Part shown: positions 7 to 54,329 of the stretch, one piece after another
Layout of the letters: each line of letters opens with the position of its first letter
Numbering within the stretch: position 1 is the first letter of the stretch
Sequence record: OQ174504.1
DNA: 64,000 nt
Origin: Escherichia phage REP5
Direction: 5' to 3' (one strand)
Program-made: the position numbers and the translations under genes
The notes under the pieces: model-generated
Databases searched by the model: none
What the model was told of the DNA's origin: nothing
What the model saw: only the letters and a program-made list of their open reading frames with translations

Positions 7-81
7 GGTACAGGTGGAGGGAATTGAACCCATCGTCTTACTGATTAAGAGTCAGCCGCATAACCATTTTGCTACACCTGC
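7..81 (-). tRNA. tRNA, anticodon CUU by hand fold (Lys?)
   Basis: Reverse complement folds as cloverleaf: acceptor GCAGGTG/CACCTGT, T-arm GGTTCAATTCC, anticodon loop CUCUUAA, CCA encoded. Confidence 0.55.
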
Positions 82-88
82 ATTAATT

Positions 89-166
89 TGGTAGGAGACA
101 AGGGATTCGAACCCTCAAACATCTCGTTCTAAGCGAGATAGGTTTACCAATTACCGTCAATCTCCC
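89..166 (-). tRNA. tRNA, isotype unresolved (anticodon loop CUUAGAA, UAG?)
   Basis: Acceptor GGGAGAT/GTCTCCT, T-arm GAGGGTTCGAATCCCTT, CCA encoded; D-arm poorly paired by eye. Confidence 0.5.
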
Positions 167-421
167 ATTAAGTCTTTTTAGAGAACTTCTAAGAACCTAA
201 GCAACAAGGTTCCACAACAAGCTGTAATAACCTTAGAAGCCCTCTAAAAAGACCTAAAAAGGTCTTTGCATAGTCTTGTTTAATCCGGTGACTAGAACCT
301 TTGGAGAGCTTGATATTATCTCTTCTCCGTGACACCTACTAGGTGTTTTATCAATGTGTACAACAATACACGCGGTATACCAAAGCAACATCCGAATGAA
401 GCTTGGCTTTAAATCTTATTA

Positions 422-508
422 GGCGGTAAGTAAAGGAGTCGAACCCTCACCGTATCTCTACAGTGGCAACTGTTTTCAAGACAGTTTGGCTACCATTAGC
501 CGCTACCT
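422..508 (-). tRNA. tRNA with long variable arm, anticodon UGA (Ser?)
   Basis: Anticodon arm ACTGT-CUUGAAA-ACAGT resembles tRNA-Ser; T-loop TTCGACT; acceptor pairing imperfect. Confidence 0.5.
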
Positions 509-524
509 ACCCCTAATAAGACTT

Positions 525-607
525 TGGCATGGGACGGAGGAGTTGAACCCCTTTGAAACGGTGTTGGAAGCCGTTGCTCATGCCTTAGAGTCTTAACATC
601 GTCCCAT
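525..607 (-). tRNA. tRNA-like element, atypical anticodon arm (9-nt loop), isotype unresolved
   Basis: Acceptor ATGGGAC/GTCCCAT plus CCA, T-arm GGGGTTCAACTCC; stem AACGG/CCGTT encloses a 9-nt loop. Confidence 0.4.
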
Positions 608-749
608 ACTATAATTCGAAGCTTACCGTATTATCTCAACACTGTAAAGCCCCTTCTCAGATTATTTACATGTTCTGGAAAACATGAGATACAGACCACC
701 TCCCTACAGGAAGACCCGCTTAGGTCGTCTAAGTAATCTGCTAACTATT

Positions 750-826
750 TGGCACACCCTACAGGATTCGAACCTGTAACTCAATGATTAGAAGTCATTT
801 GCTCTGTCCAGTTGAACTAAGGGTGC
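750..826 (-). tRNA. tRNA-Arg (anticodon UCU)
   Basis: Acceptor GCACCCT/AGGGTGT, anticodon arm AATGA-CUUCUAA-TCATT, T-arm ACAGGTTCGAATCCTGT, CCA encoded. Confidence 0.6.
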
Positions 827-1073
827 ATTAATCTTTAAAGACTCTCTTAGAAAGCCCTTAAAGATGCCCACCTTATTAATCATACCGTGGGCTAGTACGC
901 CAAATTCTTTGATGAGGGATTGGAAGACCTCACTGGTGTTTAGCCTATCAAGCTACTGCCAGAAAAACATTGTCGTTTGCATTTATTTTAAATTTGCAAA
1001 ATAGACGCTACGCAACGAAAACTAAGGTTACTATAAAGTGGTCACATCTCAGTGTCAACAACTTTATTGAAAT

Positions 1074-1149
1074 TGGTACTGTGAGAAGGATTCGAACCTT
1101 CTGCCTTTCGGTTATCAGCCGAATGCACATCCATATGTGCTTTCACAGC
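1074..1149 (-). tRNA. tRNA-Ile (anticodon GAU)
   Basis: Acceptor GCTGTGA/TCACAGT, D-stem GCAC/GTGC, anticodon arm TTCGG-CUGAUAA-CCGAA, T-arm GAAGGTTCGAATCCTTC. Confidence 0.6.
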
Positions 1150-1151
1150 TT

Positions 1152-1229
1152 TGGAGGTTCAGATGGGAATCGAACCCACATTCATAGGGCTTATGAGACC
1201 CTTGCATTACCTTATCTGCGACTGAACCA
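1152..1229 (-). tRNA. tRNA with CAU anticodon (Met or Ile2)
   Basis: Acceptor GGTTCAG/CTGAACC, anticodon arm AGGGT-CUCAUAA-GCCCT with three G-C pairs, T-arm GTGGGTTCGATTCCCAT. Confidence 0.55.
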
Positions 1230-1232
1230 TTT

Positions 1233-1308
1233 TGGTAGAAGTGGAGGGATTCGAACCCATCGCCTGTCAGATTAAAAGTCTGCCGCATCACCATTCTGCT
1301 ACACTTCC
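1233..1308 (-). tRNA. tRNA-Lys (anticodon UUU)
   Basis: Acceptor GGAAGTG/CACTTCT, anticodon loop CUUUUAA, T-arm GGGTTCGAATCCC, CCA encoded. Confidence 0.55.
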
Positions 1309-1312
1309 ATTA

Positions 1313-1456
1313 AATTATCTTTGTAGATAAGCTACCCAGACTTGCTTAAGGTCTGTAGCGATGTGCCTTGTTGGGTTTAAATCTAGAATTTACCCTTTCA
1401 CCCTTTGTGGTCGCATACTCACAGGTAAGCTTAATAACTTATCTACAAAGATAATT
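1313..1456 (-). ncRNA. Candidate structured small RNA or processing element (19-bp inverted repeat enclosing 106 nt)
   Basis: aattatctttgtagataag at 1313-1331 is the exact reverse complement of 1438-1456; lies between tRNA genes. Confidence 0.3.
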
Positions 1457-1739
1457 ACCAGACCGTTGTTTATCATCTTAAGTGCTACCATTACACCAAC
1501 TCGACATCTGCCGAGTGAAGGAATCGAACCTTCACCTTTTCTTTACCGGAGAAATAGATTGTTTAAGTTTTGCTGTAAACGGTCTTCTGTAAATTTGTTG
1601 AGCCAGACCAAGTTTTAAATTTTTCAAAATTAAATTGGCTTGAAATTTTCATACGTTCTTGCTGTATTTGGTCTTCTGCTCCTTTAAAGAATACTCGTAA
1701 GAACTCTTTAAGGGAGGGGCTAAATAGCCCTCTCAAAAT

Positions 1740-1825
1740 TGGCGGCTACGATGAGACTTGAACTCACATCATCTCCCAATATCCTTTTACGTGGGAGTAT
1801 TTTAACCAAATTAAACTACATAACC
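1740..1825 (-). tRNA. tRNA-like element, 86 nt, anticodon arm unresolved
   Basis: Acceptor GGTTATG/CGTAGCC with G-U pairs, T-arm GTGAGTTCAAGTCTCAT, CCA encoded; central stem CTCCCA/TGGGAG encloses 11-nt loop. Confidence 0.4.
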
Positions 1826-1830
1826 TTTAT

Positions 1831-1918
1831 TGGTGTGCCGTGTAGGAGTCGAACCTACCGAGTCTCAATGACAAGGGATTTACAGTCCCCACCGCTACCA
1901 TCTACGGGATAACGACAC
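1831..1918 (-). tRNA. tRNA-Tyr (anticodon GUA), long variable arm
   Basis: Acceptor GTGTCGT/ACGGCAC, anticodon arm GGGGA-CUGUAAA-TCCCT, variable arm, T-arm TAGGTTCGACTCCTA, CCA encoded. Confidence 0.6.
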
Positions 1919-1929
1919 ATTTAAATTTG

Positions 1930-2003
1930 CGGTTAGTCAGGGATTCGAACCCTGTGCCATTCGCTTAACAGGCGACCGCACATACCTTATGTGCTTCCTA
2001 ACC
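1930..2003 (-). tRNA. tRNA-Asn (anticodon GUU)
   Basis: Acceptor GGTTAG/CTAACC, D-stem GCAC/GTGC, anticodon loop CUGUUAA, T-arm CAGGGTTCGAATCCCTG; CCA not encoded. Confidence 0.55.
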
Positions 2004-2087
2004 ATATTTAGTATTACCAGACCGTATCTTTCAATTTTTTCCGCTAAAAATTTGATAAGTGTTGCTGTAAACGGTCTTCTGTAAAAT

Positions 2088-2163
2088 TGGAGGCGGGTGC
2101 AGGAGTCGAACCTGCCGATACCATGCTAATGAGACATGTGAGACGCCCTTTCTCTATACCCGC
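2088..2163 (-). tRNA. tRNA with CAU anticodon (Met/fMet or Ile2), 1:72 mismatch
   Basis: Anticodon arm CATGT-CUCAUUA-GCATG, T-arm GCAGGTTCGACTCCTGC, acceptor GCGGGT/ACCCGC with unpaired first position. Confidence 0.5.
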
Positions 2164-2255
2164 AATTCTTAATGACCAGACCAAATCTCTTCTTTGTCCG
2201 ATTTACCTTCAGATGAATAAGATTAAGTTTGCTGTAATTGGTCTTCTGTCAAAAC

Positions 2256-2333
2256 TGGCGTTCCAGAAGGGATTTGAACCCTCAGATATCCACTTTGAAA
2301 GAGTGGTGACTATACCATTTTGTCTACTGGAAC
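2256..2333 (-). tRNA. tRNA-Glu (anticodon UUC)
   Basis: Acceptor GTTCCAG/CTGGAAC, anticodon arm CCACT-CUUUCAA-AGTGG, T-arm GAGGGTTCAAATCCCTT, CCA encoded. Confidence 0.6.
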
Positions 2334-2340
2334 ATTAATT

Positions 2341-2420
2341 TGGTCTCCGTTGAAGGATTTGAACCCTCGACCCCTTGCTCCCAAAGCAAGTGCTGCTAAA
2401 CCAAACTGAGCTAAACGGAG
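2341..2420 (-). tRNA. tRNA-Pro (anticodon UGG)
   Basis: Anticodon arm CTTGC-UUUGGGA-GCAAG, T-arm GAGGGTTCAAATCCTTC, acceptor CTCCGTT/AACGGAG, CCA encoded. Confidence 0.6.
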
Positions 2421-2585: not shown

Positions 2586-4001
2586 TTACCAGATGTAACG
2601 GTCAATCGTTACTGCTTTGAGCATTACGCTGATTGGGTCAAACTTCTCACCACCAAGCAGAGCTTTTAAAGTGGCTGGAGAGAACCCTGATACCATTGCT
2701 ACACCGTTATCCTTAACAGATACTTCGCAAGTACCATTACGGTTTGCTAAGTACCAGAATACCAGTTGTGGCATCTCATATCCAGCTTTTTTGTACTTAC
2801 TCTGAATTGCTTCAAAGTTTGTACGACCGTTAGCTCCATCAACCTGATTGAACTCCATATCGGAGAAGATGATAAGCTTACTTGGCATATCTTTCTGAGT
2901 CAAGTTGTTTCTCTTACCTGTCTCAAGGATGCGGTCAAAAGCTGCTTGTAAGTTAGTTGAACCATATTCAACATGTCGCATCACCTGACGGTGACGGTTC
3001 TTTAAATCGCCACTCAGTTCGATGAAATGAGGGTTTGTTGAATAAACCATTAACTCGTTCTTAAAGCAACCTGTATTGCGTTCTGCTACATACAAGGCAA
3101 GTGATACACCAATATCAAGGGCAGTAATTGAGCCAAAATTCACCCAAGACATTGAACTTGAAACATCAGACATACATAGAATGTTTTCACCCTCTGCCAT
3201 CCAGTTTGGTAGTGCTTTCCACTGCTCATTAGCAACATCTGCATTACCATACTTAACAGATTTAATCACATCGTATGGATAAACAGCACCAGCGTTAATC
3301 TTAGTCTCACCCTTTGATAAGGACTCGATGTAAGCTTTGTAACGCTCTCCATCTTTACGGTTAAACAGTTTTTGGTAACGTGCAGCAGCAAGTGAAGGAA
3401 TCTTACTGTAGTCAATATTACCAAACTCATTAGCAGAGATTTTTTGCTCAACTGTATCAGATAGTGCAGACAATAGTGTGCGGTACTCTTTCTCACTCAA
3501 GTTGGCAAACTTGCAGAAACGTTTTACAAACTGCTTATGACGTGGTTTGACTCGTGGTAACCACTTAGCTGCTAAACCTGCTGTTGCAGGGTCTAGTAAA
3601 GCTGCTTCTAAATGTTTGAAGGCATCTGTCTCGAAACGAGTACCTACAAAGATTTTGAAGTCATCAAAACGACCAAGTTCTGCAATCTTATCCATAATGC
3701 GAAGAACCTGCGTAGGCTCTAAAACTTTATCTTCAATCGCTTGAAGTAAAACAGTTCGGAAAGCTTTACGCTCACCCATACCCTCTCGTACATCTCGCAT
3801 ATGCAGTAAAATACGAACTGCAACATCAACATCCTCATGCAAAGCTTTGTAGAACAAGTCTGGTAAGATTTCTACATTGCTACGGCTAGAACCAGCAGCT
3901 TTGTAAAAGTCCACAAGAGCAGACATTGATGAAGTATGGTTTACAGCACCATTTTCAGTTCGACCTGCATGAAGGTGCGCATGTTTAAATAACTCGCTCA
4001 T
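2586..4001 (-). CDS. vWA-domain protein with MIDAS-like motif (possibly Ro60/TROVE-like or DUF2828-like)
   Basis: 471 aa ORF; DVSSS metal-ion-site motif followed by vWA-like strands; helical N-terminal half; co-oriented with downstream tRNA cluster. Confidence 0.6.
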   Translation of the reverse strand: MSELFKHAHLHAGRTENGAVNHTSSMSALVDFYKAAGSSRSNVEILPDLFYKALHEDVDVAVRILLHMRDVREGMGERKAFRTVLLQAIEDKVLEPTQVLRIMDKIAELGRFDDFKIFVGTRFETDAFKHLEAALLDPATAGLAAKWLPRVKPRHKQFVKRFCKFANLSEKEYRTLLSALSDTVEQKISANEFGNIDYSKIPSLAAARYQKLFNRKDGERYKAYIESLSKGETKINAGAVYPYDVIKSVKYGNADVANEQWKALPNWMAEGENILCMSDVSSSMSWVNFGSITALDIGVSLALYVAERNTGCFKNELMVYSTNPHFIELSGDLKNRHRQVMRHVEYGSTNLQAAFDRILETGKRNNLTQKDMPSKLIIFSDMEFNQVDGANGRTNFEAIQSKYKKAGYEMPQLVFWYLANRNGTCEVSVKDNGVAMVSGFSPATLKALLGGEKFDPISVMLKAVTIDRYIW

Positions 4002-4081
4002 ATTTTACTCTCTTCTCTCATTGTTGTTTGATGTGACAGACTTTAGAGCAACTTTGTAGAGTCTGTCAACACCTTTTAAAA

Positions 4082-33394: not shown

Positions 33395-33880
33395 TTACTC
33401 TGCTCGCCACTGACAATCACCTTGCCACCCATACTCTTTTCTCCAGAGGTTTTGGTTATCAGAACCACGATATGGTTTAACTGTTGGTTTAGATGAATCA
33501 TACTTACCATCAATCACCACGTCAACATATTTCATTACATCTAGGTGAATTTTTTCGTGTAACTGAAAACCTGTCCAGAGCCATATAGTCTTCTCTGGGT
33601 AAACAGTTTTAACACGTTTGCATATGTCTGTAACCTCTTGAATATTTCTATCATCCAGAGGTTCTCCACCAAGTATTGACAAACCACTGACAGCATTATC
33701 ACCCATTAGCTGGATGATTCCGTAGAGGTTTGCATAAGTGAACACTTTACCAGCATTAAACTTCCAAGACTCCCTGTTAAAGCAACCTTCACAGTGATGT
33801 TTACAGCCAGCTACGAAGAGGCTTACACGAACCCCTTCACCATTAGCTGTGTCAAATGGTCTAATCTCCATGTAATTCAT
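33395..33880 (-). CDS. nrdG: Anaerobic ribonucleotide reductase activating protein (radical SAM)
   Basis: 161 aa; CKHHCEGCFN radical SAM cluster motif. Confidence 0.8.
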   Translation of the reverse strand: MNYMEIRPFDTANGEGVRVSLFVAGCKHHCEGCFNRESWKFNAGKVFTYANLYGIIQLMGDNAVSGLSILGGEPLDDRNIQEVTDICKRVKTVYPEKTIWLWTGFQLHEKIHLDVMKYVDVVIDGKYDSSKPTVKPYRGSDNQNLWRKEYGWQGDCQWRAE

Positions 33881-33889
33881 CTAGTTACC

Positions 33890-34189
33890 TCACCAATACA
33901 TATAAGTGTTCTTAGCGGCTTTCTTTGGAGACTTGCTATCAATGTCAAAGTCTTCATCTAAGAAGGATGTCTTAGAAAGCTGCCTGATTTGTGTTCTTGT
34001 AAGACGTTTAGTAGCCTTCTTAATCTCTCTACAAGGCTGACTTGTGAAGTCGTAAGAGCCACCTTTTCTGGACATCATATCAGAGTGGTAGTAGACCTCT
34101 GAAGCATTTTCTCTGTTACGTACCTCATTTCTCCACTCATAGAGTCCATGAACGTTCTTTAAACCTTTTCTTCGAATTGTTTTACTCAT
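33890..34189 (-). CDS. Hypothetical protein
   Basis: 99 aa ORF. Confidence 0.5.
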   Translation of the reverse strand: MSKTIRRKGLKNVHGLYEWRNEVRNRENASEVYYHSDMMSRKGGSYDFTSQPCREIKKATKRLTRTQIRQLSKTSFLDEDFDIDSKSPKKAAKNTYMYW

Positions 34190-34581
34190 TCAAACACCAC
34201 CTGACAAGGAACCTGTTTAGTAATAAATTCTTCACAGTGTTCTTTAATGAAGTTTTGTAATGGTACACAGTCTTGTGCACAAGTCATTAGCATAATGTAC
34301 TCTGGATTCATAATATTTTCAAGACTGTAGAAGACAACATCGTTAGATAGTTCATGACCGTCTTCTTCAGACCAAGTTCCAGTGACTACAGCTAATTTGT
34401 CAAGCAATTCATTAGGTAATGCTACACCATCTTCTACAGAATCACTTAGAACATTGTCACTGATGTACAATGTGAAGACCGTGTGGAATGTTGAGTACCT
34501 TACGTGATTCTTTTCGCAAGAGCCACACTCTGAGGCGTAATCTTTAAGCCACTCTAACTGTTTTTGGTTTAACTTCATCAT
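34186..34581 (-). CDS. Hypothetical protein
   Basis: 131 aa ORF. Confidence 0.55.
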   Translation of the reverse strand: MMKLNQKQLEWLKDYASECGSCEKNHVRYSTFHTVFTLYISDNVLSDSVEDGVALPNELLDKLAVVTGTWSEEDGHELSNDVVFYSLENIMNPEYIMLMTCAQDCVPLQNFIKEHCEEFITKQVPCQVVFE

Positions 34582-34793
34582 AATTTCACCTTAGTTGGTA
34601 ATGCACTGAATGCTATAGCTAACCCTAAAAATGGTTTGAAACATGACCATAAATCCATCTGACCATGATATGAGAAACTCCATTGTGGGTCTGAAAAACC
34701 CCATACCATAATGCTAACCCCAAAGAAGAAGACTGTTATATGTAGTATGGGTATCAATACTTTTAAGAGTGTTGTCATTGTTAATTCCACCAT
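34578..34793 (-). CDS. Small membrane protein
   Basis: 71 aa, hydrophobic. Confidence 0.45.
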   Translation of the reverse strand: MVELTMTTLLKVLIPILHITVFFFGVSIMVWGFSDPQWSFSYHGQMDLWSCFKPFLGLAIAFSALPTKVKL

Positions 34794-35167
34794 ATAGTTT
34801 TACCATTATCACATGTGTAAAGATACTCTACAGAAGTTTGTGGGACAAGTATAGTGGTGCTACCACTAAGTACACTCACAAAATGAGTAACCTCACGATG
34901 CTGATGAGTTTTTACACAATTGTTTGCCTCCATCCATATCACAGTTTTGTATGAATAGAATACCGCCAAGACACAAAGTGTAATAACTCCAACTATCATG
35001 GCAAACTCAGGCAAAAAATCTGACTGTATGATGTCTCTAAATCGCATTATTCCAAGAATAAATAAGATTATCAGACATACAATCCCACAAACTGCTACAT
35101 AAAGCCACAAGTCCATAATGTAACTCCAAATAAAAAGGTGATGTAAGCCTATCAAGACCCACATCAC
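34781..35167 (-). CDS. Membrane protein
   Basis: 128 aa, multiple hydrophobic segments. Confidence 0.5.
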   Translation of the reverse strand: MMWVLIGLHHLFIWSYIMDLWLYVAVCGIVCLIILFILGIMRFRDIIQSDFLPEFAMIVGVITLCVLAVFYSYKTVIWMEANNCVKTHQHREVTHFVSVLSGSTTILVPQTSVEYLYTCDNGKTIWWN

Positions 35168-35178
35168 CTTGTCAAGTT

Positions 35179-36045
35179 TTACATAGAAACCCTATCCTTA
35201 ATTTCTGCCATCTTAGCGTCATTCATTCGAGACTGACCTTTAATTTTTGTGAATGACAAGTACCCACACACCCTGTTAATCACAGAGATATCATGTGAAT
35301 GGCAAACCTCACATTCTTCAACATCAGCCTTTGGTCTGTGACCACAATGTTCACAGATTGCTAAGTCAAAGTTAAGTCCTTGATAAAAACCTTTCAACAT
35401 CCCTCTTGTAATACAACTTTTAAGTGCTGATAAGTTTTCTGGATTAGCTACCCTTACATACTGGATTCTTCCGCCTCTACAGATATGGAAGAAGGGTTCT
35501 TCTAAGTCCTGCTTCTCAAATGGTGTAATATCTGCTGCAACATTCATATGGAAACTGTTTGTAAAGTATTCCTTATCAGAAACACCTTTGATAACACCAA
35601 ACATATCTCTGAACTGTTTTAGCTGAGTCCCACAAAGTGATTCTGCTGGAGTGCCATAGACTGCATATAAGAAACCGTCTTCATTTTTAAACTCTTCAGT
35701 TTTCATGTTGATGTATTCCAGAACATCGTATGCAAAACTACAGCTTCCAACTTCATGAAGTCGTTTACCTTCAGCAAGAACAGATAGCTCATCAAGCGCA
35801 GTAACCCCAAAAGAAGCTGTGAAGGACTTCACAATATCCCAACCAACCCTGTCAGTAGGCTTCTTAGTTCCTTTATACAGACCACCTTGTGTAAATGCAA
35901 GAGGGTTAGAACTTGCTGGCATATTAGCAATCATTTCGTAACGTTTCTTGTGGAAGTTGCGAATCATCTCTAGGTACTTATCAAGCTCTTTCCAGAAATC
36001 TAAACCATTCTCTTTAGAGTACTGGTAAATCATTGGCAAGTTCAA
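35179..36045 (-). CDS. nrdD: Anaerobic ribonucleoside-triphosphate reductase, C-terminal exon
   Basis: Zn ribbon CEHCGHRP..CEVCH and glycyl-radical motif RVCGYL; true exon start lies upstream of the first Met. Confidence 0.75.
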   Translation of the reverse strand: MNLPMIYQYSKENGLDFWKELDKYLEMIRNFHKKRYEMIANMPASSNPLAFTQGGLYKGTKKPTDRVGWDIVKSFTASFGVTALDELSVLAEGKRLHEVGSCSFAYDVLEYINMKTEEFKNEDGFLYAVYGTPAESLCGTQLKQFRDMFGVIKGVSDKEYFTNSFHMNVAADITPFEKQDLEEPFFHICRGGRIQYVRVANPENLSALKSCITRGMLKGFYQGLNFDLAICEHCGHRPKADVEECEVCHSHDISVINRVCGYLSFTKIKGQSRMNDAKMAEIKDRVSM

Positions 36046-36439
36046 AGATACAGCACCAATGTTGGCACGACCTACATAAAACTCTTCACCATATTCGTTA
36101 TGGTATGGTGATAAAAATGCTCTACACTTGTTGTTCAGGTAAGTTCGCTAAGCTTACCCCGCTTTATTCAAGCTGCTTACTGTCGCCAGTAAGTCCAGAC
36201 TATATCTTCTACTTATTTCTAAGTAGCGTACCATTTCGAGTCGCTTGACCCTACACCGCTACATTCATCACGGTTAGTCGTTCGGCATTTAGATGTATTC
36301 AAACTCATATTCGAAGTTATTTGGCATGTAAGACCCCTATGTTGTATAGTTTCTTACATCGTACATCATTTAGCACAGGATTGTCTACATCTGTAGAGTT
36401 TCCCTGTTTAGGCACGTTTTAGATGAGCTATAGAGCTTG
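36046..36439 (-). other. Putative group I intron in nrdD (boundaries approximate)
   Basis: About 394 nt between the two nrdD ORFs; on minus strand P-like CAGGGAAAC, Q-like AATCCTGTGC, R-like GAACGACTAAC and S-like GATATAGTC occur in canonical order. Confidence 0.5.
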
Positions 36440-37639
36440 TTAACCCATCGGCGAAATAACCTTGCCAGAACGCTCAAAAGCTTCTGCTACAGCACCATGA
36501 CCAGATACACTTAAGAAGTCTGGATACATTGCTTTAGAACAACACTCAATAGCTTTACTGTACAGGTGGCCTTGACAGATATTCTCATTGTGTCTCTTCT
36601 GGTCATAAATATAAACCAGTTTAGGGAATACAACAGGCTTCTTGCTCTTACCTTGTCCATTCATACGAACATCTAGGAGAGTACTTGCAATCATGTATTG
36701 CAGTCGGTTGTCTTCATTAGACATGTCTGAGTCAAGTAACCCAAATGTCAAAGTTGTGAATGCAAAATCCCCACGACTACAAGGTACAGTATTTAGTTTC
36801 ATTTCAAGTGACTGGAAACCTTGAGTTAGCTCAATCTGTAGCTGCTCCATGACATAATTGTGGTGATGTTCTTTAGGAATACCATAAGATGCTGCTTTCT
36901 CAGCATGATAGCGTAGAGACTTCTTAGCATACGGTACAAGTACCTTATCAATCTCTGCTAAAGTAAAGCCACCAAATTGCTGTGCAGTTGCTGAAAGTAC
37001 TACGTCACCAATAACCTGTAAGGCTGATAGTACAGATTTAGGTTCACAGTATTCAATGCCAGACATTTCAAAGCCACCTTTCAGTACTTTACCAATGTCA
37101 AACAGGCAACAGTTGATACCACCAAAAATTAGGTCTCTTAAATCATGGATATAGATAAACCCTTTTTCAATGGCTTCCAATTCCTCTGGTGTTAAATGGT
37201 ACTGTTTAAAGATTTCTTTAGTCAGGTAACCACGGATAATTGAACCTTTCGTAGAAATTAAACTGCTGTCAAAGTTAGCATTTTCACGGTCACCTAAGAA
37301 GAGTGTATCTTTAGTCTTCTGGTAGAGTTCATCCCAGTTTTGAGCAACCTCTTTACGGTAATTTCTATATGTTGAGTAAGACTCATAAATCTCGTGATTG
37401 ACTTCTGCCAAAGCACCCTCAACAATACTGTGAATATCATTTACTGAAACGAGTAAATTATTCTGCTTAGTAGATTTTACCAGAATCCTCATAAATGCTG
37501 ACTCAAGAGCTTGAGTAACATCTGGTGGAAGCTCTTTATAACCAACTCTGTTAGCTGACTTTGTGACTGCTGCTAAAACTTTTTTGATATCAGGTTCTTC
37601 AAGTGAGCCATTCTTTTTAATAATCTGTACTTTGTTCAT
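36440..37639 (-). CDS. nrdD: Anaerobic ribonucleoside-triphosphate reductase, N-terminal exon
   Basis: 399 aa ORF with ATP-cone-like N-terminus; continues into 35179-36045 after the intervening sequence. Confidence 0.75.
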   Translation of the reverse strand: MNKVQIIKKNGSLEEPDIKKVLAAVTKSANRVGYKELPPDVTQALESAFMRILVKSTKQNNLLVSVNDIHSIVEGALAEVNHEIYESYSTYRNYRKEVAQNWDELYQKTKDTLFLGDRENANFDSSLISTKGSIIRGYLTKEIFKQYHLTPEELEAIEKGFIYIHDLRDLIFGGINCCLFDIGKVLKGGFEMSGIEYCEPKSVLSALQVIGDVVLSATAQQFGGFTLAEIDKVLVPYAKKSLRYHAEKAASYGIPKEHHHNYVMEQLQIELTQGFQSLEMKLNTVPCSRGDFAFTTLTFGLLDSDMSNEDNRLQYMIASTLLDVRMNGQGKSKKPVVFPKLVYIYDQKRHNENICQGHLYSKAIECCSKAMYPDFLSVSGHGAVAEAFERSGKVISPMG

Positions 37640-37658
37640 TATTGCCCCTTTACATGCT

Positions 37659-37680
37659 AAAAAGGTCTCCGAAGAGACCC
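37659..37680 (-). terminator. Rho-independent terminator
   Basis: Hairpin gggtctcttcggagacc plus T-run on minus strand. Confidence 0.5.
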
Positions 37681-37687
37681 TTTCATT

Positions 37688-37894
37688 TTAAATCTTTTTA
37701 GAAAACTTCGCAAAGAGTTCTCTTAGTTTTTCAGTGATGCCAAGATGTATCTCTAGGATTTCAAATATAACCCATAGTAACATGACTCCAAACAACAAAC
37801 CTTGTTTAAAGTCAGTAAATAGGTTAGCAATAAGCATACCAATTACAATAACTGGTGCATCAATAACCAAACCTTCCCAAAGGCGTTTAAGCAT
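37688..37894 (-). CDS. Small membrane protein
   Basis: 68 aa with two hydrophobic helices. Confidence 0.5.
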   Translation of the reverse strand: MLKRLWEGLVIDAPVIVIGMLIANLFTDFKQGLLFGVMLLWVIFEILEIHLGITEKLRELFAKFSKKI

Positions 37895-38129
37895 TATTCA
37901 CCTCTGCCATAAAATTCTGTAGCGTCCCAACAGGTTTTAGGTTTTGTCCATCAGTTTTCATGATGAATGGCATCTGACGAACTGGCATCTGTGCAATGTC
38001 CATTAGTTCCGATAGCTCATAGTCCTGCCCTAACATTCTCACAACATGGTCAATACCACGAGCTTTTGCAAAATTCTTTGCAGTCTCACACTGAGGGCAT
38101 CCAGTTTTGGAGTAAATTACATAAGTCAT
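37887..38129 (-). CDS. Glutaredoxin/NrdH-like redoxin
   Basis: 80 aa; CPQC active site. Confidence 0.75.
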   Translation of the reverse strand: MTYVIYSKTGCPQCETAKNFAKARGIDHVVRMLGQDYELSELMDIAQMPVRQMPFIMKTDGQNLKPVGTLQNFMAEVNNA

Positions 38130-39202
38130 TAAGGAACCTCTAAAAATCCACTATTCAAATCATCTACAACAGTATTCAATAGGTACGCACCGTTCTGTTG
38201 CTCCTGATTAGCATTCTGCTCTTTATCAATTTCCATCTTCTTAATCATGTACTTCAAAGGTGGTTCTTTAGGAGCTACAAAATCTCTGGGAATGCCAAAC
38301 ATATCATACAGTGGGGCAGCATTATAGTAAACCCACTCATGAAGAAGCTTTGTATTTAAGCCAACTACAGCACGTCCTTCGGAGAAGATATAATACGACC
38401 ATTTCTCTTCACTTTCAACTACTTCATCCAAGATTACTTTAATCTCTGGAAGAATTTGTTGAAAAGCTTTCTGCCACTCATCATCTCTCAAAGTTTCTTT
38501 TAAAACTTCAATATCAATTTTAGTGTGGAGGATTTCATCAAGCATAATCTTCTGCACAGCTTGAGCAATACCCTGAAATTTATCTTGAGCATCAAGTGCA
38601 AAAGTACATGCAAAGGATGCCATAAAAGATATACCTTCCAGTGCAGTCACTGCAAATAGACCTTTCAGAATCACTTTATGGAAGTGTAAAGGGTCTTTGT
38701 CCAGAAGTGAATCACGGACATAACTCAGACGGTAGTTTATACCTTCATCCAGTAATTCTTCAAGAACACGATTCACAGTTTTTAATCGGTCTTGCACAGC
38801 AACATTCTGGTTAATCTCATCTAAGATTGTTTCAGGGTTTTTAATACATTGCCTTACAATCTCTGAGTAAGTAAGAGCATGTAGGTTTTCAATCTCAGAC
38901 TGCTTCATGATTGCAGTTGCATAAATGTCATCAGAGATAAAGGGTGCAAAGGCAAATGCCAAGCTCTTAGCAACTTGAGTATCTGCTTCCCACTGCCACT
39001 TAAGAATCTCAAGCATTACACCTGACATTGATGCTGGGACACTCTCAAAATCAAGACGTGATTGTTCAAAAGGGAACTCATCTTCTGACCAGTCTTGTGC
39101 TTTTTGTTGTTTATAAAGTTCAAAGATTTTTGGGTAGTGTTTATTAAGTGAGTCAAAAGTTTTTCTCTCACCACCTAAAAAGATTGGGTGCTGGTTAATC
39201 AT
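38129..39202 (-). CDS. nrdB: Ribonucleotide reductase small subunit (class Ia)
   Basis: 357 aa ferritin-like ORF adjacent to nrdA. Confidence 0.8.
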   Translation of the reverse strand: MINQHPIFLGGERKTFDSLNKHYPKIFELYKQQKAQDWSEDEFPFEQSRLDFESVPASMSGVMLEILKWQWEADTQVAKSLAFAFAPFISDDIYATAIMKQSEIENLHALTYSEIVRQCIKNPETILDEINQNVAVQDRLKTVNRVLEELLDEGINYRLSYVRDSLLDKDPLHFHKVILKGLFAVTALEGISFMASFACTFALDAQDKFQGIAQAVQKIMLDEILHTKIDIEVLKETLRDDEWQKAFQQILPEIKVILDEVVESEEKWSYYIFSEGRAVVGLNTKLLHEWVYYNAAPLYDMFGIPRDFVAPKEPPLKYMIKKMEIDKEQNANQEQQNGAYLLNTVVDDLNSGFLEVP

Positions 39203-50567: not shown

Positions 50568-50824
50568 GTAAGCCTCTTTTAAGTAACTATTAAGTTTTAA
50601 TCTTTTATCTTAACGTATTCTATACGTTATACTTTAAAGCTTTTTAAAAGCTATTAAATAATCTTTTAAGAGTTTTAAAGTATCTGTATAGTTAAACTGT
50701 TAAGTAACCTTTTAAGTAAAAACCCACTTCGCAAAGATTAACACCTTGTCAAGTGCATTGTCAACTTGCTTTTTATAATTTTTTGCAGTAATGTATGAGG
50801 TTAATGATTTTAGAGGGAGTAAAA

Positions 50825-52967
50825 ATGGAAAACGTAGATTTTAAAAACTTACATTTAGTTGGTGATACAGAAACTGATGGTTTACTCCTTGAGTTCACTA
50901 AAGTGCACGTAATGGCTTTCGCAGACTATAAATCTGACGATGAAGAGCCACCTGTATGGGTCTTTACAGATGAGCCTATCCTCGGTCACAAGTACACTAA
51001 GTACATCAAGGGTGGTTTACGTGAAGGTGTTGAGTTTGCGTTAAAGGCAAAACGACTTTGCATCCATAACGGCCTCGGTTATGACTGGTGGGTTTTCAAT
51101 CACATTGCACCTGATTTATGGAACTTTGATAATCCAAAGTGTAAACCGTGGAGTAATTTCTTTCAGGATTCTCTTATCCAGTCTCGTGTTCAGTGGATGG
51201 ATAGACCAACTCCAAAGGGTTATAAAGGTGCTCATGGTTTGGCTGCATGGGGTGCTCGTGTTGGTGTTCGTAAACCAGAGATTGAACATTGGGGTGTGTG
51301 GAATGCAGAAATCTTCACTCGTGTTGTAGAAGATATCCGTATTAACGCCAAAACTAAACGGGCACTTGATAATGAATATCTCAAGCTTAAGAAGTGTGGC
51401 ATAGATACTTATGAAACCTACATGCGAGCTAAAGAAACATCTTTCTGGATGAGTCAACAAGCTATCAATGGCTGGAAAGCTGATAAAGAGCTTATGGAGT
51501 TCCATGTAAAGGAACTTGACAAGTTGACTAATGAGCTTGCTTCAGAAGTTGAACCACACCTTCCACCAACTATTAAGACCAAAGGTAAAGTCACTGGAGA
51601 AGAATTTGCAAAAGCTTGGAATGAGTATGTTGAAGCATTCGGTCATGCAGATGGACTGAAGAGGATTACCAAGTACCCTAAGACAAAGTATCGTCAGCAG
51701 GTACGTAATGGTGAGATGCAGACATATGAAATCAAGCCATTTGGTAAGCCAACTACAAAGATTTTTAACATTGAAAAAAGGAATTGCTATACACCAACCA
51801 ACTCTGTAACTGGTGAAGAGTACAAGGAAGGTTTTGTAGCAATGAAGGATGCTCGTGCAATTTGCAATGAGTTGAACGCAAAGATTGGTAAGAAATGCAA
51901 AGACTGGAAGCCAGTAAAAACAGTCAAAACTGTGAAGTACTATAACAGCCACGTTGTTAACCACTTTGAACTTGAGTCAAGTCGCTACACGGGTTTGATT
52001 GATGCACCATATACACCAATTGAGTTTGAAGTTTCTCGTATGACTCAGGTAGCAGTTGTTAAAGACTACTTGAAATCAGTTGGTTGGATTCCAGATGACT
52101 GGAACTACAAGAAAGACTCAGACGGTCGCCCTGTCAAAGTTTGTCGTTTCAAAGACAATAAAAAGATGATTACAAAGCATCCTAAGTGGCAGGAGATGGT
52201 AGAGCGGTGTGGTTTGAGCTATGTTGAGCATGAAGGTGTACAGTACATTGAGCATAACTGGTCTGTGAAGAAGTACACAGATTTGCTTGAGCCTTGCTTA
52301 ATCCGTACTTCACCAAAGCTTACTGAGTCATCTTATGATACGATTGAAGGTGAACTTGGACAGAAGATTGCTAAGTACTATACTTTGATGCACAGACGCA
52401 GAACTATTGAGAACTCAAAGGATGATGAAAAAGGTTGGTTGAACCAGATTCGTCCTGATGGTCGCCTTAGTGCTGGCGCAATGGTGTTTGGTACTTCAAC
52501 TGGACGCATGACACAATATGGCATTGTAAACGTACCGTCTGGTGCTGCTGTCTATGGAGCACCGATGAGGGAAGTGTGGATTTGCGAGGAAGGGACTAAT
52601 ATCGTTTCAGTTGACCAGAACTCAGCCCAGCTAGTTCTCCTTTGTAACTTTATGGGTGATAAAGAGTTCACTAAAGCGGTAACTGAAGGTAAAGAGTCAG
52701 TAGAATTTACTAAGCAAGATGATGGGAGATATTATTGCAAACATCTTGACAAGTATCTTAACCCAGAAACTGACAAGTATCTGCGTTATGATGCTGAAAA
52801 TGACCTCTATGAAGTCTACACAGGTACTGATGCACATACACTGAATAGTATTTACTTTGGTCTGAACAAGGAAGAAGATATTGTTCGTTGTAGGGAGACA
52901 CAGGATGAGGAACTTCTCCACGAGATTACAAAAGGTCGTAAGAAAGCCAAAAATGGCATTTATGCGT
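50825..52967 (+). CDS. Family A DNA polymerase, exon 1 (3' boundary approximate)
   Basis: Start at MENVDFKN after RBS gagggag; 3'-5' exonuclease motif VGDTETDGL; motif A-like VSVDQNSAQLVLL; motif B begins RKKAKNGIYA. Confidence 0.8.
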
Positions 52968-53235
52968 CAGTGGCGCATGTAAAACGTTGTGAATTGCTGG
53001 AAGCCTAAGTCTGAGAAGATACGGTAATCAGCAGCGAAGCCTCTTAAGAGGAACGTTCAGAGACTATCGAAAAGCATACTTAACGTATGAACTGAGTAGA
53101 GTAGGGTGGTAAGCTAATGACCATCCCCAAGTGCAACGGTAGCACCACTGCTACGTGATATAGTCCGACACTCCGTAGAAATGCGGAGAAGTTCATAAGA
53201 GAACTGGTACACCTTGCGAGTGTATTGACCAGATG
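52968..53235 (+). other. Group I intron in DNA polymerase gene (boundaries approximate)
   Basis: P-like AATTGCTGGAAG 52992-53003, Q-like AATCAGCAGC 53026-53035, R-like GTTCAGAGACTA 53055-53066, S-like GATATAGTCC 53157-53166; interrupts motif B. Confidence 0.65.
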
Positions 53236-53792
53236 TATTGTTCGGGGCTGGAGACGAGAAGTTTGCAAAAACTATCAAGGCATCATCTACGGAAGAAGGT
53301 GCATTGACTAAACAAACTTACTATATGCGTCTGCCAAAGATTAAGAAGTTACTTGATAGCTTAGAAGCCGATTTTAAGGCGTCTAAAAAGGCTCTGGAAG
53401 AGGTTTTTGGGAAGAATTCTTCAATTGCTAAAGGTGGTTATATCAGGGTCGCTGGAGCATGGATATGGTGCAAATCTCCACATAAACTGCTGAACTACCT
53501 TCTGATGAGTTCTGAAGCACAGATTCAGAATGAGGCCATCAACCTAGCAGCAAGAAAAGCCTGTGAAGATGGTCTGACAAAACTGAATGCTCGAAAACCA
53601 GCTATCGGAGCAAGGTTACTTCTGGCATATCACGATGAAAATAGTTGGGAATGCCCAGAGAATATGACACATGATATGAAAGCAATTGCTGACTGGATGT
53701 ATGGACAAGCTTCAAAAAACTTAGGTTTGAGGAAAGAAACACTTGTAACTGGTACAGCAAAGGTTGGTAAGAGCTGGTATGAGGTACACTGA
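53236..53792 (+). CDS. Family A DNA polymerase, exon 2
   Basis: Continues motif B (LFGAGDEKFAKTI) and carries motif C (LLAYHDEN). Confidence 0.8.
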
Positions 53793-53795
53793 TTG

Positions 53796-54329
53796 ATGGA
53801 TTTTATTTCACAAAAACGTTTAAAGGAGCTACTACACTATGACCCCGAAACAGGGGTCTTTACTTGGCTTCGTAGAGAAGGTAAATCAAGAGCTGTTAGT
53901 GTTTTTAACAGTAACTATGCAGGAAAGGTAGCAGGTAATGTTCAGACAGATTCAACTGGTCATAAACAGATTAGTATCTATTTTGACAAGAAAGCACATA
54001 AAGCACACAGACTCGCATGGCTTTATGTATATGGTAAGATGCCAAAAGGTATCATTGACCATATCAACGGAGACTCTCTTGACAACAGGATTGCAAACTT
54101 AAGGGAAGCAGATGACTTCCAAAGTGCTTGGAATAAAGGTAAACTAGCCACCAATAAATCTGGGTACAAGGGTGTAAGCCTTAAGAAGAAGTCTGGTAAG
54201 TGGGTCGCACAGATAAGTTATAAAGGTAAGAAGATGTTTTTAGGTTACCATGACACGCCTGAAGAAGCCCATAAAGCTTACTGTGAAGCTGCTATGAAAC
54301 TCCACGGAGAGTTTGCAAAACTAAGTTGA
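53796..54329 (+). CDS. HNH endonuclease with AP2 DNA-binding domain
   Basis: HINGDSLDNRIANLR HNH motif; GYKGVSLKKKSGKWVAQISYKGKKMFLGYHDTPEEAHKAY AP2-like. Confidence 0.75.
   Translation: MDFISQKRLKELLHYDPETGVFTWLRREGKSRAVSVFNSNYAGKVAGNVQTDSTGHKQISIYFDKKAHKAHRLAWLYVYGKMPKGIIDHINGDSLDNRIANLREADDFQSAWNKGKLATNKSGYKGVSLKKKSGKWVAQISYKGKKMFLGYHDTPEEAHKAYCEAAMKLHGEFAKLS

Follow-up and report, generated by a model that had tools for sequence, protein, structure and literature searches.

The window analysed here is a stretch of 64,000 nucleotides from Escherichia phage REP5 (OQ174504.1). By sequence, the window belongs to Felixounavirus: its nrdD region (35100-37700, minus strand) shows 100% identity to that of Escherichia phage REP6 along the 2,601 bases searched, and many genomes of Felixounavirus, the Felix O1-like myoviruses that infect E. 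coli and Salmonella, match it at 95-97%. The neighbours of nrdD are the nucleotide-metabolism genes expected at this locus, namely nrdB, a glutaredoxin-like ORF and nrdG. Elsewhere in the window, 11 clustered tRNA genes identified with Rfam (9-2420, minus strand) are likewise as expected for a Felix O1-like genome. The genes and ORFs of the nrdD locus are as follows:

38129-39202: nrdB
37887-38129: glutaredoxin-like ORF
37639..36440, minus strand: ORF of 399 aa, N-terminal half of NrdD
36045..35179, minus strand: ORF of 288 aa, C-terminal half of NrdD
33395-33880: nrdG

The two NrdD halves do lie in separate ORFs about 394 nt apart (gap 36046-36439), as the first-pass annotation had described. 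The upstream ORF carries an ATP-cone and matches positions 1-250 of the Pfam NRDD profile, and the downstream ORF matches positions 284-560 and holds the Gly_radical domain with the expected RVCGYL glycyl-radical motif. A promoter and terminator scan of 35000-38200 had a single useful result, a terminator-like hairpin just past nrdD (35170-35135); promoter-like sites in this interval were no commoner than in shuffled sequence (7 vs 8.7). A plus-strand ORF of 71 aa (36033-36248) runs antisense to the ribozyme core described below and to the start of exon 2, and is assumed to be fortuitous. The interval between nrdD and nrdG holds four small minus-strand ORFs in the window (33890-35167; 128, 71, 131 and 99 aa) and a single free-standing homing endonuclease gene in phage Si3 (L003 locus 3456-4013). 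Here, too, the nrd cluster is variable in association with an endonuclease gene.

The boundaries of the interruption were set from intron-less alleles, the P1 and P10 pairings and the terminal G. The joined exons were used as a 400-nt query against the phage collection; many Felixounaviruses matched it in one piece, and the intron-carrying genomes broke exactly at base 200/201. Intron-less Felixounavirus alleles read continuously CCGATGGGT|TGTAGAGC at the junction, and the intron-less phage adrianh reads CCGATGGGT|TGTAGAGCC. Joining the window in silico at 36443|36126 yields a CDS of 2,145 nt encoding 714 aa, the length also found for the uninterrupted nrdD CDSs of KhF2, PK6, Z31 and fBSPA4, and over the junction the product is identical to the intron-less alleles. 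The joined product is a contiguous, in-frame NrdD that is colinear with T4 NrdD (1H78: ..VPVSPMGCRSFLSVW..) and with 9D3X, and it aligns to both without a gap over the junction (..KVISPMG|CRAFLSPY..). The intron-less alleles, the length of the joined CDS and the gap-free alignment therefore place the intron at 36442..36127, with a length of 316 nt. Because the intron and exon 2 both begin with T, the junction is ambiguous by one base, and this ambiguity was resolved by the group I rule of a U before the 5' splice site and a G ending the intron. Since the exons join in frame, the outcome named beforehand as speaking against an intron, exons that cannot be joined, did not arise. The resulting gene structure is:

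36443..37639, minus strand: nrdD exon 1, 399 codons, with PF03477 ATP-cone and PF13597 positions 1-250; end set by intron-less alleles
36127..36442, minus strand: group I intron, IA2-like, 316 nt, without an endonuclease ORF; from RF00028, helix model, covariation and allele break point
35179..36126, minus strand: nrdD exon 2, 315 codons plus stop, including RVCGYL

Exon 1 ends in ...CCG AUG GGU (..SPMG). The intron opens with UAA, the in-frame stop of exon 1 and the TAA that closes the first ORF, and ends in ...CAACAAG, with the terminal G (omega-G) at 36127; homologues end in ..AAUG or ..GAUG before the Cys codon. Exon 2 starts with UGU AGA GCA (Cys-Arg-Ala), its first codon specifying the catalytic cysteine, the equivalent of Cys290 in the T4 protein. 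The earlier equation of the intervening sequence with the ORF gap, 36046-36439, consequently gave the wrong bounds: the gap takes in 81 nt of exon 2 (36126..36046), which encode CRAFLSPYHNEYGEEFYVGRANIGAVS and include the catalytic cysteine. This segment was missed because the listed ORF begins at the first TTG, and the frame of that ORF is open upstream as far as 36126.

A structure-based intron search of the whole 64-kb window returned a match to RF00028 (Intron_gpI) on the minus strand at 36176-36557, far from what chance would give (E = 8.5e-11). Its score of 53.6 bits exceeds the gathering score of 50 by just 3.6 bits, and the P1/P2 part of the model was misplaced. The coordinates of this match were rejected as intron ends, P1/P2 having been forced into exon 1 and the model having stopped at P9. 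The alignment shows canonical J3/4-P4-P5, P6, J6/7-P7 (..CGAACGACUA), P3', P8, J8/7-P7' (AAGAUAUAGUCU) and P9. All four of the P-, Q-, R- and S-like elements previously read on the minus strand could be placed, in canonical order, in P4, J6/7-P7 and J8/7-P7. The helix model, all on the minus strand, is:

36423..36448: P1, exon AUGGGU (36448-36443) with guide GCUCAU (36428-36423)
36429..36433: P10 half of the guide, CUAUA, with the first five bases of exon 2, UGUAG (36126-36122), read from the sequence
36416-36411 with 36232-36227: P3, 5' strand CGUGCC with 3' strand GGUACG
36407-36403 with 36379-36375: P4, ACAGG/CCUGU; its 5' strand (36407-36403) is element P and its 3' strand (36379-36375) element Q
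36397-36393 with 36388-36384: P5, UCUAC/GUAGA
36285..36374: P6, GC/GC, with an extension made of P6a GAUGUA/UACAUC, P6b AUGUAAGA/UCUUACAU and P6c CUAU/AUAG
about 36285-36275: element R, J6/7 and P7 5' strand
36279-36275 with 36202-36198: P7, GACUA/UAGUC, in a pseudoknot with P3
in 36198..36279, between P7 and the P3 3' strand: P7.1 ACCG/CGGU and P7.2 GGGUC/GACUC
36226-36221 with 36214-36209: P8, CUACUU/AAGUAG
about 36209-36198: element S, J8/7 and P7 3' strand
36193-36176: P9, CUUACUG/CAGUAAG, with GNRA loop GCGA
36173-36161: P9.1, GCUU/AAGC
36159-36137: P9.2, GGGUAAG/CUUACCU

All canonical group I helices can be drawn, P2 being absent from the model. An unconstrained minimum free energy (MFE) fold of the precursor regains 65 of the 71 nested model pairs, and the MFE of the intron has a z of -3.1 against mononucleotide shuffles. 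P1 places a U36443·G36428 wobble at the 5' splice site and holds the in-frame UAA in its loop. It is identical in six homologues, and in T4 (AUGAGU/GCUCAU) a G·U pair is changed to A-U. The P10 guide bases directly abut the P1 guide, and P10 is weakly kept in the relatives (A13b and nepoznato pair at 2 of the first 4 positions). The extra P7.1 and P7.2 between P7 and the P3 3' strand are an IA2 trait, and the intron is best described as IA2-like, the choice of IA2 over another IA subclass following its likeness to the T4 introns and not a formal classifier.

Related introns outside the genus were found by blastn with the intron as query, and seven cores were aligned (the window, RPN213, Krischvirus phiS, Vequintavirus 'A13b', Phapecoctavirus nepoznato, Vibrio phage F97 and T4 sunY). 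The structure was taken from the window sequence, P6 inserts (in T4, the I-TevII region) were trimmed by hand, and columns were hand-chosen. Standard pairs fill 98.3% of the 360 cells, and 18 of the 52 pairs are changed on both sides. None of 500 column shuffles equalled the observed alignment, and all five measures exceeded every shuffle. In controls with the 3' partner slid by 1-3 columns, pairing was 33-41%, a comparison in which the origin of the structure and the hand trimming favour the observed structure somewhat. MAFFT misaligned the P5, P8 and P9.1 loops, so only in-register stems were scored and the rest were tabulated by hand, with helix strings placed by eye. Compensatory changes occur in P3, P4, P5, P7.1 (3 pairs), P8, P9 (3 pairs) and P9.2 (4 pairs); P6 and P7 are invariant and therefore uninformative, and in P7.1 a single cell, that of F97, is non-canonical. 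The core fold from P3 to P9.2, including P7.1 and P7.2, is thus supported by covariation.

No homing endonuclease gene is present in the window intron, whose longest ORF has 29 codons and in which a 12-codon HNH remnant is left. In pSJ21, Si3 and many other phages, the intron is 742 nt long and carries an ORF of 154 aa in P6 that matches PF13392 (HNH_3). The insertion site and ribozyme of these HNH-containing copies (pSJ21, Si3, UAB_Phi87, JH2, Mushroom) are as in the window, and outside the ORF the window differs from pSJ21 by just two substitutions, in P6b/P6c, and an ambiguous deletion junction. The window intron and the HNH-containing Felixounavirus introns are evidently one element, reduced in the window to 316 nt by an in-frame deletion of 426 nt. 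The trace of the gene is:

36289..36327, minus strand: HNH gene remnant, 12 codons, AUG CCA AA|U AAC UUC GAA UAU GAG UUU GAA UAC AUC UAA

In this remnant the start and first codons are fused in frame to the last 9 codons, with the deletion junction near 36320. Together, the two substitutions destroy the Shine-Dalgarno sequence (AGGAG to GGGGU) and turn a G·A mismatch in P6b into a G-C pair. In the HNH-containing copies (L002 locus 1840-1890, against window 36326-36359), the P6b/P6c hairpin encloses the AGGAG and the AUG of the endonuclease gene. This arrangement resembles that of the T4 td intron, where RNA structure masks the translation of I-TevI.

Loss of the ORF is not confined to the window. 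Salmonella phage RPN213 (OL800606.1, L007) has an ORF-less intron of 292 nt with a different deletion, which takes P6b and the HNH start and leaves ..GGTGTAAAAGAGCATAATAAC, the HNH 3' end, retaining more of the end of the ORF than the window does. Because the two deletions differ, the ORF has been lost at least twice; among the intron-carrying records sampled, 3 of 12 are ORF-less. A tentative suggestion is that these independent, clean deletions, and with them the changes tightening P6b, were favoured by selection for an intron that only splices, once the population of target sites had become saturated. The ORF also affects detection: Rfam gives no gathering-score match on an HNH-containing relative (L002) because the 426-nt ORF splits the core, and Rfam screening therefore overlooks most copies of the nrdD intron.

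The site is polymorphic for the presence of the intron. Roughly 236 Felixounavirus-type records match the exon junction, and about 93 of them hold at least 80% of the intron. The type phage, Felix O1, has been reported to be intron-free (PMC3185647), which is consistent with a presence/absence polymorphism at the nrdD site and means that this phage provides no experimental anchor for the intron. Four intron-containing and five intron-less alleles were compared over ±480 nt around the junction. Among the 154 polymorphic sites in this interval, the fixed intron-linked differences are solely those at +12 and +48 of exon 2, with +9 and +39 nearly fixed. The changes at +9 and +12 are synonymous (GCA TTT vs GCC TTC, Ala-Phe in both). 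In this small sample of four against five, the pattern at +12 and +48 is compatible with a short tract of co-conversion, or with selection for targets that resist cleavage. A further allele is seen in Salmonella phage ST11 (L008, MF370225.1 74727-75720), which reads ..CCGATGGGTTAATTTTTATC.. at the intron site (locus ~495-510). There the intron is absent, exon 2 is without GTAGAGC (net 6 nt fewer), an in-frame TAA is present and the catalytic Cys-Arg-Ala is lost. ST11 may have lost the intron imprecisely, which would have turned nrdD into a pseudogene, or its sequence may be misassembled at this point.

Introns at the same site were also found outside the genus. In Krischvirus phiS, Vequintavirus 'A13b', Phapecoctavirus nepoznato and Vibrio phage F97, the intron directly precedes the catalytic Cys codon (..MG|CRSFL..), as in the window. 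All four share with the window a common P1 (AUGGGU/GCUCAU) and have 71-79% core identity to it, although the NrdD proteins that host them are only ~23-35% identical to that of the window. Each has an HNH ORF in P6 that is homologous to the HNH ORF of the window's relatives, and all those examined keep the ORF. In these phages (L009/L013, L014, L015 and L011, respectively), the HNH ORF extends through the P6 3' strand and J6/7 into P7 (..YEMPND*), its stop codon being formed by the P7 strand (..GAA AUG CCU AAC GAC UAA/UAG), so that coding sequence and catalytic core overlap. Across the five phage lineages, the HNH ORFs are homologues with 39-53% identity, all placed in one and the same P6 loop; the ribozyme and the ORF therefore appear to have travelled together, and the ORF-less state of the window is a derived one. 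Furthermore, IMG/VR was scanned for exact matches to the P7-P7.1-P7.2 signature. Of the 53 obtained, about 20 have a terminal G and an NrdD Cys codon within 90-160 nt downstream (ten Felixounavirus-like and about ten from divergent, uncultured phages). The nrdD-intron element is thus found at the catalytic Cys codon in at least five phage lineages. The record MG065677.1, 'Campylobacter phage A13b' (L012/L014), and about a dozen similar ones carry a Campylobacter label and are classified as Vequintavirus (rV5-like coliphages), and the host label of these A13b-type records looks doubtful.

The parallel with the T4 nrdD intron drawn in the first-pass annotation holds for the gene, the subgroup, the guide and the core, and fails for the position, the endonuclease family and the location of the endonuclease gene. 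The T4 nrdD (sunY) intron and the window intron share one host gene and one architecture (no P2, P7.1/P7.2, a GNRA-capped P9), their cores are ~71% identical, and their P9.2 loops are related (AAGUAGCGAA in T4 sunY, CUUAGCGAA in the window). Their guides are identical (GCUCAU), and the exon targets with which these pair, AUGAGU in T4 and AUGGGU in the window, differ by one base. The T4 site, however, lies ~110 codons upstream of the window site, after ..AFQAYE, and the two were rejected as the same insertion, as SPMGCRSFL is unbroken in T4. With its 1,033 nt, the T4 intron carries the GIY-YIG gene of I-TevII 3' of P9, in contrast to the 316-nt, ORF-less window intron, whose relatives hold their HNH gene in P6. 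What the two introns have in common is therefore their kind and their ancestry, but not their position. That a single intron lineage took the two nrdD positions by RNA-guided transposition, with reverse splicing into an ectopic site, and not by endonuclease homing, is a tentative idea to which we give a minor chance. On this view, the endonuclease genes, which differ in family and in their location within the intron, would suggest that the ribozyme moved first and gained endonuclease genes independently.

The nrdD intron had been described as the second in the window, and another RF00028 match indeed splits the DNA polymerase gene (52905-53188, plus strand, 59.2 bits, from the Rfam scan of the window). 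The polymerase intron is presumably the first one meant. Its position, determined by hand, is:

50795-52967, plus strand: upstream flank in the DNA polymerase gene
52968-53235, plus strand: polymerase intron, 268 nt, no ORF
53236-53792, plus strand: downstream flank in the DNA polymerase gene

This family-A DNA polymerase intron has a P1 of AUGCGU/GCGCAU and a terminal G at 53235. The joined exons read ..AKNGIYA|LLFGAGDEK.., which matches in length the motif B region of T7 DNA polymerase (AKTFIYGFLYGAGDEK). A free-standing ORF of 178 aa with HNH_3 and AP2 (53793-54329, plus strand) starts at the base after the polymerase stop. It is probably a homing endonuclease and could act in trans to mobilise either the ORF-less intron of the polymerase gene or the 3' end of that gene.

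Taken together, we regard it as highly likely that nrdD is interrupted by a group I intron with in-frame junctions, and that this intron descends from a mobile, HNH-carrying one and has lost the ORF. Transcription of nrdD would give a single pre-mRNA in which the guide GCUCAU pairs with the end of exon 1, AUGGGU; the P1 so formed would put a U·G pair where cleavage takes place. The attack after U36443 would then come from an external guanosine that P7 binds. The adjacent CUAUA would hold exon 2 through P10, and the terminal G at 36127 would take the place of the guanosine. Exon ligation is predicted to produce ..CCG AUG GGU|UGU AGA GCA.. (junction CCGATGGGT|TGTAGAGCA), and hence the 714-aa NrdD with the catalytic cysteine codon as the first of exon 2. 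On unspliced RNA, the UAA at the intron start may halt ribosomes ahead of the ribozyme core. The ancestor of the intron, with its 154-aa HNH (HNH_3) gene in the P6 loop, would have spread into intron-less nrdD by cleavage and repair. With that gene removed by the 426-nt in-frame deletion, the intron should still be able to splice, but it cannot home alone.

The deletion of the endonuclease gene also shows an element in decay, and the intron could be group I by descent only, no longer splicing after the P6 deletion and leaving nrdD inactive. The stop codon in ST11 adds to this, as nrdD may be dispensable under laboratory conditions. We consider such a dead intron or pseudogene quite improbable. 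The deletion is limited to the peripheral P6 extension, with P6, P6a and all core helices intact and 98-100% identical to those of endonuclease-containing versions. P6b is in fact better paired than in the HNH-containing version (G-C vs G·A), and T4 sunY has just a short hairpin at P6. Both exons have kept an open frame and their full length, with 95-97% identity to relatives. A precedent for a phage ribonucleotide reductase (RNR) intron that splices with a crippled HNH gene is the T4 nrdB intron, which carries a truncated I-TevIII gene (intact in RB3) and still splices although a deletion has crippled that HNH gene (PMC2988022, PMC1865063); it lies in another gene and at another site, and its relic ORF is larger than that of the window.

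The published annotation suggests a different reading, in which nothing is spliced and two polypeptides (399 aa and ~284-288 aa) assemble after translation. GenBank records carry two separate CDSs: nrdD is annotated as two fragments in REP6, pSJ21, Si3, RPN213 and ST11 and, by product name, in most of the ~90 intron-carrying records, and the feature tables of those five phages contain no intron feature. Genome papers speak of a gene divided by a homing endonuclease and do not propose an intron; for nrdD of some Felix O1-like phages, this is the description given by Bardina et al. 2016 (PMC4837284) and in work cited there. A functional split RNR exists in Aeromonas phage Aeh1, whose NrdA is split by mobE, according to the passages of PMC3653736 and PMC7344957 that cite it. 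This arrangement was rejected for the window, as two pieces with their own starts fail to cover the whole of NrdD, and we hold it to be highly improbable. The 27 codons at 36126-36046, which contain the catalytic Cys and the CRxFL..GRxNxG finger-loop and have no start codon, would be lost from both polypeptides. In REP6 (L001, OQ174505.1), for instance, the second nrdD CDS is annotated from the ATG at 36033 (MIYQY..) and is without 31 codons, the catalytic cysteine among them. Neither a complete, covarying group I core nor the base-exact restoration of the intron-less allele would be needed without splicing. Finally, although RNR genes often host inteins (PMC3653736), an intein or other protein-level intervening sequence has practically no chance and is ruled out by the reading frames, since the interval opens with a TAA in frame, every frame contains stops, the longest ORF has 29 codons, and the match is to an RNA family, not a protein family.

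Against this background, the nrdD intron of the window is an unannotated example of an otherwise very well known kind of element. No paper calling the nrdD interruption a group I intron was found in the Felix O1, Felixounavirus and Ounavirinae literature, in a search with most subscription journals outside its reach, and the literature search likewise found no report of splicing for any Felixounavirus. The current understanding of group I introns is left unchanged by this intron. For the phages themselves, recognising it gives back one intact 714-aa NrdD in place of two annotated fragments. Moreover, a single genus presents a series from the life cycle of a homing endonuclease, with the empty site, the HNH-containing intron, two ORF-less forms and one apparently imprecise loss.
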